Shown: positions 27,466 to 35,621 of the stretch, piece after piece
Layout of the letters: every line of letters begins with the position of its first letter
Numbering within the stretch: the first letter of the stretch is position 1
Assembly (NCBI GenBank): GCA_963841015.1
Contig: CAWJAX010000005.1
Coordinates: 533,855-597,854 of the forward strand
Length of the DNA stretch: 64,000 bases
Direction of reading: 5' to 3'
Source of the DNA: an uncultured Methanoregulaceae archaeon
GTDB lineage: Archaea > Halobacteriota > Methanomicrobia > Methanomicrobiales > Methanospirillaceae
The notes under the pieces: generated by a model
What the model saw: the letters and a program-made list of their open reading frames with translations, nothing else
Databases searched by the model: none
What the model was told of the DNA's origin: nothing
Position numbers and translations under genes: made by a program

Positions 27466-27729
27466 TTTTTTTCACGCACCAGCTATGATCGATTTCAAAA
27501 ATCGACTATCAAAAAGTGGTCGAAGAAGATAGATAAATGTTCTGAAATAAGCCCATAAAAAAGGGGAATTTATTCAGGATTTTTAATTTTTATAAATATA
27601 CTCTTGAATCATGTTAATTTAAAAAAATTTACTCAATTCGCCATTTTCCATGCGCTGTATAAACCGGATTAAATTAGAAAATTTATTCAATAAACATCAT
27701 TGTACCTTTGTAGTACCGGAGGTTATCAA

Positions 27730-28614
27730 ATGGAAATCAACGGAGTTACTATTGATAATACGTACGCAGAGGCATTCCCGACCTGGGTCTGCCGTGTAAT
27801 CATCACTGCGGTGACGAAGGAATGGGCAGAGAAAGCAGCAACGGAAGCAACCGGATTTGCAACATCGTCTATTGGCTGCCCATGCGAGGCAGGAATTGAA
27901 GGATTTGTGCCGGCAAGTGAGACTCCCGATGGAAGACCGGGTGTTGCCATCCTGATCTGTGCCAGCAAGAAGAAACTCAAGGAACAGGTCGTGGAACGCC
28001 TTGCAGAATGTGTCCTCACTGCACCTACCACAGCAGTTTTTAACGGGATCACCAATGCAGAGGAAAAAATCCCGGTCAAGCTTCACTTCTTTGGTGATGG
28101 CTACGAATACCAGAAAGAGGTAGGCGGGAGAAAGTGCTGGGCTATTCCCATTATGCAGGGTGAATACGTTGGCGAAGAGGAGTTTGGCATCGTCAAGGGT
28201 GTTGCCGGCGGAAACTTCTTTGTGATGGGTGAGAACCAGATGGCAGCTCTCATGGGAGCAAAAGCTGCAGTTGACGCGATTGACAGGGTGCCGGGCACTA
28301 TCACGAGTTTCCCGGGTGGTATTGTCGGGAGCGGTTCAAAAGTGGGCAGCCTGAAATACAAGTTCATGATTGCTTCGACCAATGAGAAGTACTGTCCGAC
28401 ACTCCGGGAAAAAGTTGCTGACACCAAGGTCCCGGCTGGAATCAAGGCAGTCTATGAGATTGTTATTGACGGGATTGATGAGAAGTCTGTTGCAGCGGCA
28501 ATGGGAGCCGGTGTCAGGGCAGCTGTCATGGTTCCGGGCGTGAAGTTCATCTCTGCTGGAAACTTTGGCGGTACTCTTGGACCATTTAAGATTGATCTGC
28601 ACAAAGTGCTCTGA
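27730..28614 (+). CDS. ftr: Formylmethanofuran:H4MPT formyltransferase
   Basis: MEINGVTIDNTYAEAF, TPDGRPG, GVAGGNF, SAGNFGG. Confidence 0.97.
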   Translation: MEINGVTIDNTYAEAFPTWVCRVIITAVTKEWAEKAATEATGFATSSIGCPCEAGIEGFVPASETPDGRPGVAILICASKKKLKEQVVERLAECVLTAPTTAVFNGITNAEEKIPVKLHFFGDGYEYQKEVGGRKCWAIPIMQGEYVGEEEFGIVKGVAGGNFFVMGENQMAALMGAKAAVDAIDRVPGTITSFPGGIVGSGSKVGSLKYKFMIASTNEKYCPTLREKVADTKVPAGIKAVYEIVIDGIDEKSVAAAMGAGVRAAVMVPGVKFISAGNFGGTLGPFKIDLHKVL

Positions 28615-28918
28615 AATTTTCTCTTTTTTTAATTTATTGCGATCACATCGATCGTTATTTATATTTTTATTGCCGATTCTTTTGTTAACGAAATTTTCGG
28701 CGATAACATGATCACCCTGACACACAAGGACGTGAATCCCCGATTCCGACCTCTTTTCAGCCCGATCTTTCGCCTGGGGGTTGGCGGATTCAATGGTACC
28801 TCAGCGATCATCGGACGATGCATTGCCCGAAGCACCAGTACAGCGGATATGATGAACCGATTGTGTACCTGGGATGGGGTAATACAGGAAATCAAAGGAA
28901 TTGAGATGGCTGGACACT

Positions 28919-29815
28919 ATGACGAACATCCCTGAACCGTATGTCATACACTACCCGCGGATTGTGGCAGTAGCTGATGAAGCAGGCAGTCATGTGGAGC
29001 TCATTGAGTTCTTTGACTGTGTTGGCGGGGCAATGTGGTCAAAGCACCACTATGCCCAAAGCCCGGTGGTAAAAAATGTCCGCTGTGTTGGCCAGACCAT
29101 GCGGTACCTCTTAACCACGGGTACCGTGGACCTTGCTCTTGAAGGATCCAGGTTTCCGGCCGGTATCTCCTCGTGCATTGTCGAAAAATCTGAGATCGCT
29201 GTCACCTACATCGGAATGGGTGGGGGCGGGGTAGGTGCAGCAGCATGCCGTTCTGATGCAGCTGGTGTCCTGCGGAGCAGGTGCGATGAATCCGGGGGTG
29301 GGAAAGTTGCCGGTTCCACGATATGGCTGCCCCGCATGCAGCGGGTTCTCATTGGTGTCGATGATACTGATACCCCTGACGAGGGAGCCACGTGGACGCT
29401 TGTCCATAATATTGCAAAAGCGGTTGAGGATGAGCATTCGGTATACCTCTCGCACACGATAGTCCAGCTCTTCCCGGTGCCGTACCGTACCAAGAACTGT
29501 GTGAGTCTTGTGGCAGAGTTCGCGACAACGGATACCAAGGGACTGACAGAAAGGTTCCGGCAACTCCTCGAACGGTACACTCTCTCCCAAAAAACGGGGA
29601 TGGCAGTCTATACCGGGTTTACACTCTCAGAAAAACTGCTTGAATACGGGCGAAATGTCAAACGGGGAGAGATTAAACCGGGAGTGCTCGGAGGCCTGGA
29701 TGACAAAAACCTGCAGATAATACTGGATGGCAGGGGCATAATCGGGGCGGTTGCCGCCATCCCTTTTTACACCCGGTACGAGGAGGCGCTGGAATTATGC
29801 AGTGGACGGACCTGA
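28919..29815 (+). CDS. mmp11: Methanogenesis marker protein 11 (TiaS-like/DUF1743 C-terminal domain)
   Basis: VELIEFFDC, Y.GMGGGGVGA, IGVDDTD...GATW, QLFPVPYRTKNC. Confidence 0.85.
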   Translation: MTNIPEPYVIHYPRIVAVADEAGSHVELIEFFDCVGGAMWSKHHYAQSPVVKNVRCVGQTMRYLLTTGTVDLALEGSRFPAGISSCIVEKSEIAVTYIGMGGGGVGAAACRSDAAGVLRSRCDESGGGKVAGSTIWLPRMQRVLIGVDDTDTPDEGATWTLVHNIAKAVEDEHSVYLSHTIVQLFPVPYRTKNCVSLVAEFATTDTKGLTERFRQLLERYTLSQKTGMAVYTGFTLSEKLLEYGRNVKRGEIKPGVLGGLDDKNLQIILDGRGIIGAVAAIPFYTRYEEALELCSGRT

Positions 29816-30766
29816 AAGCCCGGCTTCTGGCGGTTGGTCAGGCACACCTGACCGGTGAACCGGCAGAAAACTATATCGCCCGTTCAGCTGCAGGTACCCG
29901 GTGCCGGTGGCAGCGGTGCAGTTTTTTTTGCCATGGGAAGTCACCGGGTCAAGCTTGCGCTCAGCCCGGTAAGCAGTATCGAGATTGCACACCGTGGCAA
30001 CGGAACTGCCGATCTGTTCTTTGAAGGACAGAAAATCTCCGGACACCTGCTGGAACCCGGGTTCCATTGCCCTGATCAGGCTTTTATCACCGTGACCGGC
30101 AGCTGCATTTTTTCCTGCAGCTATTGTTCCGTCCCCCGGATCGGGGGAAAACGCAAGACCATCAAAGAGATCACAGCGATGGTGGAATCGGTACGTGACC
30201 ATATCCATGCAATCTCCATAACAAGCGGGGTCCTCACGAGCATTGAAGAAGAAGAGGCCTATGTTCTTGAAGTGGTAAAACACCTCGCTTCGTTTAACCT
30301 GCCTGTTGGTGTCTCCATCTACCCGACCACAACGACACCCGACCGGTTAAAGGAGCTGGGCGTGGCTGAGGTGAAATTCAATCTCGAAGCGGCAACCCCG
30401 GAACTGTTTTCTCAGATGTGCCCGGGTCTGGATTACGGGGTACTCTGGCAGGTACTGGATCGCTCGGTGAAGCTGTTCGGGAAAAACCGTGTCTTTTCCA
30501 ATGTCATCATAGGCCTGGGGGAGACTGATGCGGAGCTGGAAACCTGTATCCAGAAGCTGACAGCGCTCGGGGTGATTCCGGTTCTGCGCCCACTCAATCC
30601 GGTAGCCGGGCTTGCAGGCTCACCACGGCCATCTGCACAACGGCTGATGAAAATCTTTGCCATACATGCACGGGCTCTTGACCAGGCTGGTCTTGATCCA
30701 AAACTTGCAGTTACGATGTGCACGAATTGTGCAGGTTGTGATCTCGTGCCGGGGAGGGACCAATGA
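29797..30766 (+). CDS. Radical SAM protein, biotin-synthase-related (frameshift near 29896)
   Basis: CIFSCSYC; NVIIGLGETD; additional C-terminal CTNCAGC; N-terminus MQWTDLKARLL in another frame. Confidence 0.85.
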
Positions 30767-32034
30767 AAGGGGTTGACGTAATCACCCGGGCAATCCTTGC
30801 CTGCACCGACCGGCAGTATACCGTGCCGGGTTTTCCCATCACTGAGCTTGGTGAGCGGACAGGAGCGGAACTGGTGATCAACGAGAAGACTGCGCTGGAA
30901 TATGCACTCGGGGATTCCCTCTCTGGCAGGAGGGCCGCGGTTATCATCAAAAATGTCGGGGTGAACGCGTGTGCCGATCCCCTGCTCCAGGCAACAGCGC
31001 AGGGGCTCATAGGGGGGGTGATCCTTGTAGCCGGGGATGACCCGGAAGCAAAAGGTTCACAGACCTCCCAGGACTCACGCTACTTCGGGGAGCTTGCGGA
31101 ACTCCCGGTGATAGAACCGGATGAAACCACCTGTTATGCCGGTGTGGAGGCGGCGCTTGAAGCCTCCGAGGAGTTCTCCCGGGTAGCCATGCTCCGCCTG
31201 ACACCACAGATCCTGGAACAGGAGGTAACAGGTAATCCTGTTCCCCGGAATGACCGGCGAGGGAGGCTCTCCGACCGGACCTGGACTATGAACGGCAGGG
31301 TCACTGCAGCAGAGGAGCTGTACCGCACGATGTTTGCCTGGTCAGACCGGTCAGCCCTGAACCAGTGGAAGGGAGAACCCGCCGGTGTTGGTGCAGCAGA
31401 GGGGAATACCCGGATAGTGACCGTGAATCCTCTGCCGTTGCAGGCTGCCGGGATGCACAATGTGCATGAACAGGGCCGGACCTTTGTCCGTGACCACCGT
31501 GGTATCCAGCCACCGCTTCCCCAGAAACGCCCCCAGGCGATGGAGGACCGCGGATACTACCGCACATTCTGCACCTCATGCCCGTTTAAACCCTTCATGA
31601 ATATCGTAAAGGAACGGAACATGAAGATGATCTGCGATGCCGGGTGTTCCGTGCTGGGAATGAATCCGCCGTATGATCTGGGTGTGGCAAGTTATGGTAT
31701 GGGTGCGAGCATCGCGGTAGCCGCACGGAGTACGCAGGTTGCCCTTATCGGTGATTATGCCCTCCTGCACTCCGGTCTGAACGCACTCATCGATGTCTAT
31801 GAGAAGCGGCTCCCGCTGCTCTGCATAGTAATGAATAACAAATGCACCGCAATGACCGGCAAACAGCCGGCCTATAATCCTGTGCCCTATATCCGCTGGG
31901 CAGACCCGGTTATCTGCAGTGCCGATGACGAACCGATGCTGAAACAGGAGCTTGTGGTCACGGACAGGCCGCGAACGCTGGTGATTGAAGGGACCTGTCC
32001 GGGAGGAAGCAGCCATGAAACCGTGGAATATTGA
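30763..32034 (+). CDS. ThDP-dependent enzyme, truncated IorA-like
   Basis: TVPGFP, INEKTALEYA, AGDDP...SQ..QDSR, FCTSCP, GDYALLHSG...NN; no C-terminal ferredoxin domain. Confidence 0.85.
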   Translation: MKGVDVITRAILACTDRQYTVPGFPITELGERTGAELVINEKTALEYALGDSLSGRRAAVIIKNVGVNACADPLLQATAQGLIGGVILVAGDDPEAKGSQTSQDSRYFGELAELPVIEPDETTCYAGVEAALEASEEFSRVAMLRLTPQILEQEVTGNPVPRNDRRGRLSDRTWTMNGRVTAAEELYRTMFAWSDRSALNQWKGEPAGVGAAEGNTRIVTVNPLPLQAAGMHNVHEQGRTFVRDHRGIQPPLPQKRPQAMEDRGYYRTFCTSCPFKPFMNIVKERNMKMICDAGCSVLGMNPPYDLGVASYGMGASIAVAARSTQVALIGDYALLHSGLNALIDVYEKRLPLLCIVMNNKCTAMTGKQPAYNPVPYIRWADPVICSADDEPMLKQELVVTDRPRTLVIEGTCPGGSSHETVEY

Positions 32035-33143
32035 GATATGTGATGTAACGCTCAGAGACGGAGAACAGACACCGGGAGTATCATTTTCCTGTGAGGAAAA
32101 GGTGAGGATTGCCCGGATGCTGGATACCATCGGGATTGAGGTGATCGAGGCCGGGTTTCCTGCAGTATCCCCCCACGAAAAGGAGTGCGTAAAGGCCGTT
32201 GCGAACCTCGGGCTCGACTGCCCGTATCTGCGGGTTTGCACGCGCCCGGGAAGCAGATGTTGCAACAGCGATAGACTGCAATGTGGACATGGTAAGCATC
32301 TTTATCCCGACATCCGAGCTGCATGTCCGGCTCAAATTCAAAAAAACGCGGGAGCAGGTGCTTGACGATGCACTCGGGATTATTGATTATGCCACGGATC
32401 ACGGTGTTCAGGTGCGGTTTGCAGCCGAAGATGCGTCCCGGACGGATCTTCCCTTCTTAAAAGAGGTGTACCGTCGTGCGTCAGAGCACGGTGCAGTGCT
32501 GCTGAGCTTTGCCGACACCGTTGGCTGCCTGATCCCGACCGAAATGCAGCGGGTCATGACCGAACTGGTTGCATCGGTGGACAAACCGCTCTGTGCTCAC
32601 TGCCATAACGATATGGGCTGTGCGGTCGCAAATACGATTACCGCTGCAGAAGCCGGGGCTTTCCAGCTGCATACAACGGTAAACGGGATCGGGGAGCGGG
32701 CTGGCAATGCATCCCTGGAAGAAGTGCTTGTAGCCCTGCGGATGAAAGGGGGTATTGATCGGTACGATCTCTCACACCTGACGGAACTCTCCCACATGGT
32801 CGAAAAATTCTCCGGCATCACGCTCCCGAGGAACAAGCCCGTCACCGGCGAACTCGCGTTCTCGCACGAAAGTGGTATCCACATCGCGGCAATTCTTGAA
32901 GACCCGTCCTCGTACGAATACTTCCCGCCCGATATGGTCGGGAGCGAACGCAGGTTCATTCTCGGGAAACATACAGGTAAGAAAGCGCTTGAACATGTAG
33001 TGGCATCGATTGGCTGCGAACTTACCGAAAAACAGGTCTGCCGGGTTCTTGACCTTGTCAAGGACAAATCAGAGCATAAATGCAACATCACCCCGGATGT
33101 CTTAAAAAAACTGATCCGGAAAGCAAAAGAGGAGAATGCCTGA
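32015..33143 (+). CDS. aksA: Homocitrate synthase family (frameshift near 32218)
   Basis: DVTLRDGEQTPG, HCHNDMG, GIGERAGNA, HESGIH; no LeuA regulatory domain. Confidence 0.85.
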
Positions 33144-34357
33144 TGGGGACATTATCAGAAAGGATCCTTCACGGGACTGCGGGAGAGTATGTTGACCGGG
33201 CCATCGACCGGGCGTATGTCCATGACGGCACCGGGGTACTTACTCTTGAAGCCTGGAAGAGTATGGGAGAGCAGAGGATACAGGATGCGTCACATATTCA
33301 CGTCCTTTTCGATCATATCGTGCCGGCAAACAACAGCACAACTGCGACTCTCCAGCACGAGCTGCGTGAGTTCGCCCGCAGTTCGTTCCTGCATTTTTCT
33401 GATATCGGGAGTGGGATCTGTCACCAGATCATGAGCGAGGGGATAGTGCTCCCGGGTGAAGTCGTGGTCGGCGCTGATTCCCACAGCTGCACGCTCGGGG
33501 CCTTCGGTGCATTTGCCACGGGTGTCGGTGCAACGGATATGGCAGCGATCTGGATGACCGGGGAGACATGGTTCCGGGTTCCGGAATCAACAGGGATGCA
33601 CCTTTCCGGAACCTTTACTGGTGCCGCCGAGGCAAAAGACCTTGCACTTACCTATGTCAGCAAACTCGGTATGGACGGTGCCAGCTACCAGGCTCTGGAA
33701 TTTATTGGTGAAGGCACAGCTGCCCTGCCCATGGACGACCGGCTCACGCTCTGCAACCTTGCTGTTGAGACCGGTGCCAAGGCCGGAATGTTCTATGCAG
33801 ATGCTATAACCGTGCAGTATCTTGCAGCGGCAGGTCACACGGTAAAACCCCAGACGCCGGAGCCTTGCAGGTATATCCGGGAGCTGGATTTCGATCTTTC
33901 CGATATTGTCCCGGTCATTGCTGTGCCTCCAAGGGTGGACACCGTAAAACCCGTGCATGATCTCGCCGGGCTGCCGCTCGATCAGGTTTTTGTGGGTACC
34001 TGCACAAACGGCCGCTACACGGATCTTGCACGGTTCGCACGGGTTGTGAAAGGGAAAAATGTTGCAATCCGCACTATCATTGTTCCGGCTTCCCGTGCCG
34101 TGCTGCAGGAAGCACTCCGGACCGGGGTACTTGCTGATCTTGTGGCGGCCGGATGCACTATCGGAACCCCGGGCTGCGGTCCCTGCCTTGGAGCCCATAT
34201 GGGTGTACTGGGCGAAGGGGAGGTCTGCCTGTCAACAGCAAACCGCAACTTCAAAAACCGGATGGGTGTTGGCGGGGAGATTTTCCTGTCCTCCGTTGCC
34301 ACGGCCGCAGCCAGTGCACTTGAAGGAGAAATAACCGAGCCGGAGGCGGGCCCATGA
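33143..34357 (+). CDS. aksD: Homoaconitase large subunit
   Basis: HDGT, GICHQ, GADSH, GTCTNGR, CGPCLG, NRNFKNRMG. Confidence 0.85.
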   Translation: MGTLSERILHGTAGEYVDRAIDRAYVHDGTGVLTLEAWKSMGEQRIQDASHIHVLFDHIVPANNSTTATLQHELREFARSSFLHFSDIGSGICHQIMSEGIVLPGEVVVGADSHSCTLGAFGAFATGVGATDMAAIWMTGETWFRVPESTGMHLSGTFTGAAEAKDLALTYVSKLGMDGASYQALEFIGEGTAALPMDDRLTLCNLAVETGAKAGMFYADAITVQYLAAAGHTVKPQTPEPCRYIRELDFDLSDIVPVIAVPPRVDTVKPVHDLAGLPLDQVFVGTCTNGRYTDLARFARVVKGKNVAIRTIIVPASRAVLQEALRTGVLADLVAAGCTIGTPGCGPCLGAHMGVLGEGEVCLSTANRNFKNRMGVGGEIFLSSVATAAASALEGEITEPEAGP

Positions 34358-34824
34358 TGGGAAAAGGGCGGGCTGTCTGCGTCGGTGCAGATATTGACAC
34401 GGATCTTGTAATCGCCGGGCGCTACCTGCGGACAAAGGATCATAGTCTCTGGGTTGCACACGTGTTCGAAGATCTCGATCCAACGCTCGCCAGCCGCCTG
34501 AACGGTGCCGTGATCGTGGCAGGAAAAAATTTTGGCTGCGGTTCCTCCCGGGAACAGGCAGCGATTGCCATCCATGAGGCCGGCGTGGTTGCCGTGGTGG
34601 CACCATCCTTTGCCCGGATATTTTTCCGGAATGCAATCAATGTCGGGCTCCCGCTTATTGAATGTAATCTCTTCTGCACAGAGGGAAGTCTCGTGACGTT
34701 CGACCTTGCAGAAGGATGGGTTGAGGCAGAGGGTAAGAAGTATACCACCTGCCCGCTCTCTCCACGGATGCAGGAGATCCTTGCAGCGGGCGGCCTCGTC
34801 AACTACTGGAGGTCCGGCAGATGA
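34354..34824 (+). CDS. aksE: Homoaconitase small subunit
   Basis: IDTD...YLRT loop typical of homoaconitase; GKNFGCGSSREQA. Confidence 0.85.
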   Translation: MMGKGRAVCVGADIDTDLVIAGRYLRTKDHSLWVAHVFEDLDPTLASRLNGAVIVAGKNFGCGSSREQAAIAIHEAGVVAVVAPSFARIFFRNAINVGLPLIECNLFCTEGSLVTFDLAEGWVEAEGKKYTTCPLSPRMQEILAAGGLVNYWRSGR

Positions 34825-35621
34825 TCTTTCCGGAACAGTGCAAGCAGGTCGGGTATGCTGCAACAAAACCCTGCGGTGACAAGGTCTATTTCCTGAGCCG
34901 CTACCTGGTGCGGGACACGGGTGACGGGTATGAGCTGCTCGAAATCACGCTTGATTCTGCAGGGAAAGGTCTGATGCGTACAATTGTGGCGTCCAACGTG
35001 GTCGCAACTGCAAAGGAAACGTACCGTTACCCCGAAAAAGTGCAGATCCATGACCGCACGCGACTTATCAGGCTTGCACGGGATACGGGCTTTCGCTGCA
35101 CGATCTTTACCGGGCTTGACGAACATATGACGTTCGTGCTTGACCCTGATATCTCCGGGCTGCTTGAGATCCATGTTTATGATGTAGCGCCTCCCCGCCC
35201 GAGTCTCTCTTCCTGTATCCGGGAGCTGGAGTCTGACGGGCTCTTTGGGGATCTTTCGGTCACGTTCTGCCACCATACCCGCGATATCACGCAGGTCCAG
35301 GCGGATGTCTACCCCTGTCGTGCCGCAGGGTATACCCGTACGCTCGATGCCGACCCGATGCAGGGGGGGGAACGGGTAGCCGGGTGCCAGACAGGTTCAC
35401 AGTTCTACACCGAATGCTACGGGAAGGACTTTGCGCTTGAGAATATCTGCCCGCTGGAATCCGTGCAGGAGGAACCGTTCATAGCCCGTTGTTGTCGCTC
35501 CGAACGTGCAGGTACAGGGATCTCTAAAGGGAAGTTTGGAGCCGTAGTCCACTGGGGTGCAAATCCGGCACAGATCGCCCGTGCGGTGAATGATCTGGCA
35601 GTGGAGTGGAGGAAGCAATGA
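34821..35621 (+). CDS. Cys-rich protein of unknown function
   Basis: 266 aa, ATGA overlaps with both neighbours; YPC, GC, ICP and RCCR motifs. Confidence 0.85.
   Translation: MIFPEQCKQVGYAATKPCGDKVYFLSRYLVRDTGDGYELLEITLDSAGKGLMRTIVASNVVATAKETYRYPEKVQIHDRTRLIRLARDTGFRCTIFTGLDEHMTFVLDPDISGLLEIHVYDVAPPRPSLSSCIRELESDGLFGDLSVTFCHHTRDITQVQADVYPCRAAGYTRTLDADPMQGGERVAGCQTGSQFYTECYGKDFALENICPLESVQEEPFIARCCRSERAGTGISKGKFGAVVHWGANPAQIARAVNDLAVEWRKQ

Follow-up and report, generated by a model that had tools for sequence, protein, structure and literature searches.

A short IorA-like thiamine diphosphate protein as a candidate 2-oxosuberate decarboxylase of coenzyme B biosynthesis

Which enzyme decarboxylates 2-oxosuberate on the way to coenzyme B (CoB) is the question raised by a gene at positions 30763 to 32034 of a 64,000-nucleotide stretch of DNA (the window) from an uncultured Methanoregulaceae archaeon (contig CAWJAX010000005.1), which codes for a short IorA-like thiamine diphosphate (ThDP) protein. 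All methyl- and alkyl-coenzyme M reductases depend on CoB. Passages of a report from 2025 (PMC12068725) describe the CoB pathway as still unknown and suggest COG1900 proteins to be possibly involved, whereas the sections of PMC3087415 drawn upon here list 2-oxosuberate and a semialdehyde as intermediates and name genes only for chain elongation; within the cited part of PMC11619418 an AksA-type synthase is the sole CoB gene treated. Literature naming a 2-oxosuberate decarboxylase, assigning this protein family or attributing a gene to any step beyond 2-oxosuberate was not found in a search outside of which subscription journals and supplements lay. It is suggested here, at a probability of roughly 0.55, that the short ThDP gene encodes a ThDP-dependent 2-oxosuberate decarboxylase on the scaffold of the 2-oxoacid:ferredoxin oxidoreductases (OFORs), precisely of IorA, which would serve CoB biosynthesis and release 7-oxoheptanoate. 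As such it is the best candidate yet for the missing CoB step, whereby substrate and pathway are proposed because of the synteny with aksA, aksD, aksE and aksF, with the gene for methanogenesis marker protein 11 (marker 11) and with an XcbA-like gene, because of a joint absence with AksD, and because of a homologue residing in a biotin operon. The same substrate and pathway had been put forward in an original prediction for this locus, which gains these three independent comparative lines of support. Anatomy, gene context and phyletic pattern were observed, while substrate, product and the role of an iron-sulfur cluster are what we infer.

Anatomy and ancestry of the short ThDP protein

The protein and its functional sites locate to the following positions:

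30763..32034, plus strand: short IorA-like ThDP protein (short ThDP protein), 423 aa, ATG start
30883..30885, plus strand: E41, glutamate of the pyrimidine-binding (Pyr) domain within the NEK motif, found in 85 of 85 family sequences and invariant in true IorA too
31570..31647, plus strand: C270-x2-C273 ... C295, cysteines 1-3 of the OFOR proximal [4Fe-4S] motif, invariant in alignment A1
31750..31839, plus strand: GDY-X25-NN, predicted ThDP/Mg-binding motif of the diphosphate-binding (PP) domain, residues 330-359
31996..31998, plus strand: C412, fourth conserved cysteine, placed by alignment

The 423-aa open reading frame with IorA-type Pyr and PP motifs was confirmed as predicted, E41 and GDY-X25-NN being in place, and the alignment of the 85 family sequences documents that the remaining ThDP-enzyme invariants are intact as well. 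Four nucleotides (ATGA) are shared by its start and the stop of the preceding radical S-adenosylmethionine (SAM) gene, and its 3' end, with the stop at 32034, runs 20-50 nt into the aksA start (TTG 31985 or ATG 32015), in agreement with the overlap claimed before. Parts of the gene are covered by RNA-library contigs (run X15), whereby contigs cannot show transcription and uncovered stretches carry no information. The Pyr domain comprises residues ~1-160 and the PP domain residues ~256-423, joined by a short linker where IorA has domain II; the ~100 residues of this domain are missing here and are present in the 480-550 aa class of relatives. TPP_enzyme_C was identified as sole Pfam match (residues 292-369, 4.5e-10), TPP_enzyme_M gave no match and TPP_enzyme_N no significant one, and the Pfam scan likewise revealed no match to the Fer4 family. 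In alignment A1, which consists of the short ThDP protein, its relatives and three true IorA, one of them from the same genome, the protein ends before both C-terminal CxxCxxCxxxCP repeats of true IorA, so that the C-terminal 2x[4Fe-4S] ferredoxin domain is absent, as had been stated. A dedicated search for fused forms of at least 742 aa found none, which is weak evidence.

Missed by the original prediction were the loss of domain II, the four proximal-cluster cysteines and a genuine iorA-iorB pair ~70 kb upstream on the same contig (G000:C5:492362-494688). C270, C273, C295 and C412 fall into A1 columns in which true IorA has invariant cysteines, and all four are present in 83 of the 85 family sequences. 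A CXGC motif is described for the OFOR proximal cluster in passages of PMC5020499, and the mapping of the cysteine site onto the solved cluster rests on these passages and on the IorA alignment, the profile alignments with sequences of the Protein Data Bank (PDB) not spanning the cysteine motif. V21, T175, G178 and R263 were identified as family-specific with respect to true IorA, in a screen with only five IorA rows, which is too thin for a substrate-binding argument.

The model IOR_alpha (TIGR03336) is the best NCBIfam match of the short ThDP protein, and together with the genuine iorAB pair in the genome this match would suit a degenerate IorA paralogue that borrows a distant IorB and oxidises aryl-pyruvates. 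Such a paralogue is nevertheless highly improbable, as the match amounts to 156.2 bits against a cut-off of 650.9, while the true IorA of the same genome scores 826.2 bits. Moreover, a FastTree phylogeny (132 sequences, midpoint root) placed all 40 Fer4-bearing IorA in one 77-row clade (support 100) and the short ThDP protein outside of it, in a 17-row clade (support 100), with the 480-550 aa relatives forming a 23-row clade (support 95). In accordance with the original prediction, tblastn revealed no IorB/POR-gamma homologue within the window, and the pairing with a distant IorB that it had considered found no support in a genome search, since each of the five POR-gamma domains of the genome adjoins its own alpha/beta genes. 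No IorB homologue was found in the 124 loci around members of the short ThDP family; by comparison, IorB lies directly downstream, as in true iorAB, in 64 of 80 control metagenome loci that were fetched with generic IorA-like motifs. Six of these 80 loci show contexts of the short ThDP type (marker 11 or aks genes), and none of the six carries IorB. Finally, two genomes discussed below (G201 and G202) keep a true IorA yet do not possess the short ThDP gene. Judged by these comparisons, the short ThDP protein is IorA-derived but not IorA.

Many IorA-like proteins of 386-570 aa without ferredoxin motif were also seen in bacteria, in clusters from Ignavibacteriota, Myxococcota and Acidobacteriota (P0170-P0267 representatives).

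The structure prediction that had been proposed as a check yielded an AlphaFold2 model (pLDDT 96.4, pTM 0.95) with predicted Pyr and PP folds of the OFOR type. Residues 1-249 of the model, which span Pyr domain and linker, resemble OFOR alpha domain I (6n2n_A, Z 23.0; 5b47_A, Z 22.7, 245 aligned residues at a root-mean-square deviation (rmsd) of 2.8), and a match to OFOR beta was obtained for the PP half (5b48_B, Z 14.0, 154 aligned, rmsd 3.1). For the model as a whole, superpositions were obtained with single-chain ThDP enzymes (8x3x_A, Z 27.5, rmsd 3.3, 320 aligned; 8zk6_A, Z 25.2, rmsd 4.2, 329 aligned), and shared ThDP folds alone do not show family membership. Foldseek against the PDB likewise brought single-chain ThDP enzymes to the top, at TMq ~0.58 and rmsd 14-17, and hence did not discriminate. 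At the level of sequence, the A1 profile matches both OFOR alpha (1yd7_A, 7.3e-14) and OFOR beta (5b48_B, 8.4e-8), only profiles having reached OFOR chains, as phmmer against PDB sequences gave no match with the whole protein or its PP half. A complex prediction for the short ThDP protein and marker 11 returned 'no answer' with a score of 0.00 and was used neither way.

Gene neighbourhood, phyletic pattern and a biotin operon

The short ThDP gene is embedded between the following genes:

28901..29815, plus strand: methanogenesis marker protein 11; TIGR03280 344.4 bits against a cut-off of 255.8; TiaS-like kinase core (Pfam TiaS_TCKD and TiaS_FLD) with GVDDTDT motif
29855..30766, plus strand: radical SAM protein with a CxxxCxxC motif (residue 84) and a second, C-terminal one, CxxCxxC (residue 289); weakly LipS2/BioB/LipA-like
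31985..33143, plus strand: aksA (homocitrate-synthase family), in two frames with one extra base near 32217-32220
33080..34357, plus strand: aksD/hacA-type homoaconitase large subunit
34354..34824, plus strand: aksE/hacB-type small subunit
34821..35621, plus strand: DUF7714 protein with 11 cysteines, distantly XcbA-like; PF24830 303 bits
35606..36583, plus strand: aksF-type homoisocitrate dehydrogenase

The order marker 11, radical SAM, short ThDP, aksA, aksD, aksE, DUF7714, aksF is conserved. In other genomes of the archaeon's own order, radical SAM, ThDP gene and aksA follow one another in 26 of 26 loci, with marker 11 within the short flank in 23 of them. Among a named set, consisting of the best 80 genome-contig loci centred on marker 11, a short ThDP-type gene occurs in 71, the combination of radical SAM, ThDP gene and aksA in 55 and the full set of eight genes in 48, while 15 loci (Methanosarcinales, Methanothrix or Methanoperedens) possess a bare pair of marker 11 and ThDP gene. 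The nine named loci without ThDP gene comprise four at a contig edge, two with marker 11, radical SAM and DUF7714, and three with marker 11 alone. Five other families were sampled by 14 fetched loci, in all of which the ThDP relative adjoins marker 11 (six), aks genes (six) or both (two). The Methanosarcinales-type relative is of the 480-550 aa class and resides beside marker 11 and/or aks genes, whereby the pair of marker 11 and ThDP gene is the sole conserved feature of 13 such loci; radical SAM orthologues (39-43% identity) are found elsewhere in four of five Methanosarcinales-type genomes and directly after marker 11 in one. As a consequence, the arrangement is to be understood as a neighbourhood network and not as one fixed operon. 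Of all neighbours, marker 11 accompanies the ThDP gene most constantly across orders, and stop and start of the two genes often overlap.

In many Methanomicrobiales (L057, L060-L064 and others) marker 11 follows a tandem paralogue of itself (~318 aa, 27-41% identity, ~200 bits on TIGR03280); the window has no such paralogue at this site, the gene upstream of marker 11 being Ftr (27700-28614).

The extra base near 32217-32220 of aksA was judged against the relatives L056, L058 and L099. Since this base is missing from a near-identical DNA contig of an independent run (X1) and from three RNA-library contigs (X15), the split of aksA probably reflects an assembly error or a change specific to the strain. 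Two further genes of the genome also look split, namely a LeuC-like gene (G000:C4:75110-76298, one TGA inside) and a ComDE-like ThDP gene (G000:C3:148528-148963, two pieces), which fits indel errors.

For the DUF7714 protein, a match to the NCBIfam XcbA family was obtained over residues 21-260 (59 bits against a cut-off of 150, 4.5e-16). XcbA is described in passages of PMC9457059 as a [2Fe-2S] enzyme that converts a thioaldehyde into the coenzyme M thiol in bacteria, and the DUF7714 protein is, by this distant likeness, a candidate for the reductase forming the 7-mercaptoheptanoate thiol.

The phyletic pattern was derived from 201 genomes of the phylum. Within this sample the short ThDP family and DUF7714 share families f1-f7, f10, f14 and f24, with f19 as sole exception, and marker 11 exceeds its cut-off in 102 of the 201 genomes, i.e., it is distributed more widely than the short ThDP family. 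In a control search DUF7714 was found in Methanosarcina acetivorans. G201 (L113, Methanocorpusculum petauri strain MG) and G202 (L109) keep marker 11, radical SAM and DUF7714, as well as a true IorA (frames of 596-602 aa) and one LeuC-like gene (38-39% identity), and miss both the short ThDP gene and an orthologue of AksD, the only Aks protein that was searched for. The related genome G203 (L111, Methanocorpusculum sp.) possesses the short ThDP gene along with AksD (60% identity, plus a paralogue of 43%). The same result as for G201 was obtained for G189 (99% complete), the sole genome of the archaeon's own order without a short ThDP match. The assignment hence predicts that the Methanocorpusculum-type genomes L113/L109 and G189 depend on a C7 precursor or CoB from outside.

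A further setting is provided by L054:6806-14963 (minus strand), an operon that reads BioU-like, BioF, BioD, aksA-like, aksD, aksE, aksF-like and ends with a ThDP homologue of 476 aa; BioF scores 437.7 bits (cut-off 426.45), BioD 138.6 (cut-off 83.3) and the BioU-like protein 342, which is below its cut-off. BioF condenses a C7 pimeloyl thioester. As the C7 skeleton needed by BioF corresponds to 2-oxosuberate minus C1, the biotin operon would be an independent setting asking for the same reaction, and its gene content suggests that the archaeal genus of L046 and L054 obtains the pimeloyl moiety of biotin through elongation and decarboxylation of 2-oxoacids. In the two f19 sequences, L046 and L054, all four cluster cysteines are lost together; their genomes contain no marker 11 above cut-off and no DUF7714, and a radical SAM orthologue was not found in G030, the sole f19 genome searched for it. 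A homologue search yielded one near-identical cluster and distant relatives (33-39%) for the biotin-operon clade, and no relative turned up when metagenomes were scanned with the L054 homologue, so that this line is based on one genus (L046, L054).

Considering these data, a ThDP enzyme acting on another 2-oxoacid (2-oxoadipate, 2-oxopimelate, or sulfopyruvate for coenzyme M), or one catalyzing carboligation instead of decarboxylation, can be weighed. According to passages of PMC3087415, 2-oxoacids of three different lengths are produced by the Aks enzymes; the sequence does not reveal the substrate specificity, and few family-specific residues were identified; and XcbA, the nearest named relative of DUF7714, acts in coenzyme M synthesis (passages of PMC9457059). 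Against this stand the separate ComDE-like ThDP gene in the genome (G000:C3:148528-148963), the joint absence, which is with AksD and not with DUF7714, and the biotin-operon homologue, for which a C7 product is needed. Another substrate or carboligation is hence regarded as distinctly unlikely.

Proposed chemistry and the retained cluster

The suggested reaction assumes that AksA, AksD, AksE and AksF elongate 2-oxoglutarate to 2-oxosuberate, which would then meet ThDP/Mg held between the Pyr and PP domains of the short ThDP protein, whereby C1 of 2-oxosuberate would leave as CO2. Without IorB module and ferredoxin domain, the ThDP-bound carbanion would be protonated and 7-oxoheptanoate released, the retained [4Fe-4S] site being structural or tuning the enzyme. 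In the following steps the radical SAM protein, the XcbA-like DUF7714 protein and marker 11 may serve as candidates for sulfur insertion, thioaldehyde reduction, and threonine ligation or phosphorylation. As neither a CoA-binding module nor a ferredoxin domain is present, release of 7-oxoheptanoate is the simplest outcome, and non-oxidative chemistry is plausible for the short ThDP protein. The telling loss is that of the coenzyme A (CoA)-binding IorB/domain III and not that of the ferredoxin domain. The pyruvate:ferredoxin oxidoreductase of Pyrococcus is said to possess a decarboxylase side activity.

Several findings weigh against the assignment as a non-oxidative CoB enzyme. All 83 methanogen-type sequences (83 of 83) retain the four cysteines of the proximal cluster, which argues for a cluster that matters and would be compatible with redox chemistry. 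Two-subunit OFORs without ferredoxin domain are working oxidoreductases, as described in passages of PMC5020499. The premise from which the original prediction had argued for non-oxidative decarboxylation thus stands in part, the ferredoxin domain and IorB indeed being gone, and is weakened in part by the kept cysteines and by these active OFORs. Concerning the distribution, four genomes with marker 11 (G011, G033, G057, G059) contain no short homologue, and a fifth (G047) contains only an IorA-type frame of 626 aa; these genomes belong to families f8, f16 and f17 and are without DUF7714 too. The short ThDP protein is consequently not universal among archaea needing CoB, and these five must reach the C7 thiol by some other route. 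The DUF7714 control search gave no match in Methanocaldococcus jannaschii, and three named loci (one ANME-2 record, one Ca. Ethanoperedens record and one labelled Nanoarchaeia) carry marker 11 without ThDP gene nearby. The joint absence in two genomes may go back to a single loss event, and the 423-aa and 480-550-aa clades are not resolved as sisters in the FastTree backbone, so that their orthology rests on shared context.

The kept cysteines allow for an alternative which shares substrate and pathway and assigns the cluster a catalytic role: the ThDP-bound C7 unit would be oxidised or handed to a sulfur-inserting partner (marker 11, radical SAM, DUF7714) and would leave as acyl, thio-acyl or thioaldehyde, never as free 7-oxoheptanoate. 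The cysteines, retained in 83 of 85 sequences, are lost only in the biotin-operon clade, that is, in genomes without marker 11, radical SAM and DUF7714, and the tight pairing with marker 11, often by overlapping stop and start, points in the same direction, but the free 7-oxoheptanoate that labelling studies reportedly proposed as an intermediate does not. An OFOR with a sole cluster is redox-active according to passages of PMC5020499, and the distant relationship of DUF7714 to XcbA, a [2Fe-2S] thioaldehyde reductase (passages of PMC9457059), would provide a partner; yet the CoA-binding module and the ferredoxin domain are absent, and reduction of an oxidised C7 acyl group to the thiol would take a further four electrons. 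A cluster-dependent reaction of this kind is therefore considered doubtful.

Still bolder, and as a whole unlikely, is the idea that the short ThDP protein, marker 11, the LipS2-like radical SAM protein and the XcbA-like DUF7714 protein represent the whole missing late CoB pathway of the Methanomicrobiales/Methanosarcinales type. Here, the ThDP-bound C7 unit would be passed straight to sulfur insertion without a free aldehyde, hence the kept cluster; marker 11 would carry out a TiaS-like ATP-dependent oxygen activation, DUF7714 would reduce the thioaldehyde, and the cluster-free sister would feed the C7 skeleton to archaeal biotin. A TiaS mechanism for marker 11 and neighbours covering sulfur insertion, reduction and threonine ligation are assumed here.

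Returning to the non-oxidative 2-oxosuberate decarboxylase, one specific, clonable candidate for the decarboxylation step, together with three linked further candidates, renders the CoB gap directly testable. If true, an oxidoreductase scaffold was recast as a stand-alone decarboxylase. The assignment further hints at the origin of the biotin pimeloyl unit in some archaea, predicts which methanogens rely on CoB precursors from outside, and offers a methanogen-specific target for inhibitor work.

Comparison with known systems

Compared to the OFOR superfamily, the short ThDP protein possesses homologous Pyr (domain I) and PP (domain VI) domains, whereas the CoA-binding domain III or gamma subunit (IorB) is absent. 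With IorA (TIGR03336) it shares the homologous Pyr and PP domains, the NEK glutamate, the GDx-X25-NN motif and the four proximal-cluster cysteines; by contrast, it is ~170-220 residues shorter, lacks domain II as well as the C-terminal 2x[4Fe-4S] domain, is not encoded next to an iorB and belongs to a separate clade. The two-subunit archaeal OFORs (StOFOR1/2, PDB 5b46-5b48) are described in passages of PMC5020499 and resemble it, as far as the predicted sites go, in combining ThDP with a single [4Fe-4S] site without built-in ferredoxin domain; unlike the short ThDP protein, which carries Pyr and PP on one chain and misses domains II and III, StOFOR keeps both domains and is a CoA-dependent oxidoreductase.

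In terms of function, the sulfopyruvate decarboxylase ComDE and the phosphonopyruvate decarboxylase type would offer an analogy, being minimal Pyr and PP ThDP enzymes, whereby ComDE likewise turns a 2-oxoacid into an aldehyde that becomes a methanogen thiol cofactor. A likeness in fold was seen for the Pyr half of the model (9iz3_A, Z 12.3, 134 aligned; 9u8q_A, Z 14.9, 152 aligned), but the short ThDP protein is of OFOR ancestry and carries cluster cysteines, and no ComDE-type family model is among its four NCBIfam matches at E <= 0.01. Single-chain ThDP decarboxylases (PDC, IPDC, KdcA, AHAS, HACL) finally offer a superposition of the predicted chain over both domains, whereas the middle TH3 domain is missing from the short ThDP protein and identity amounts to 12-16%.

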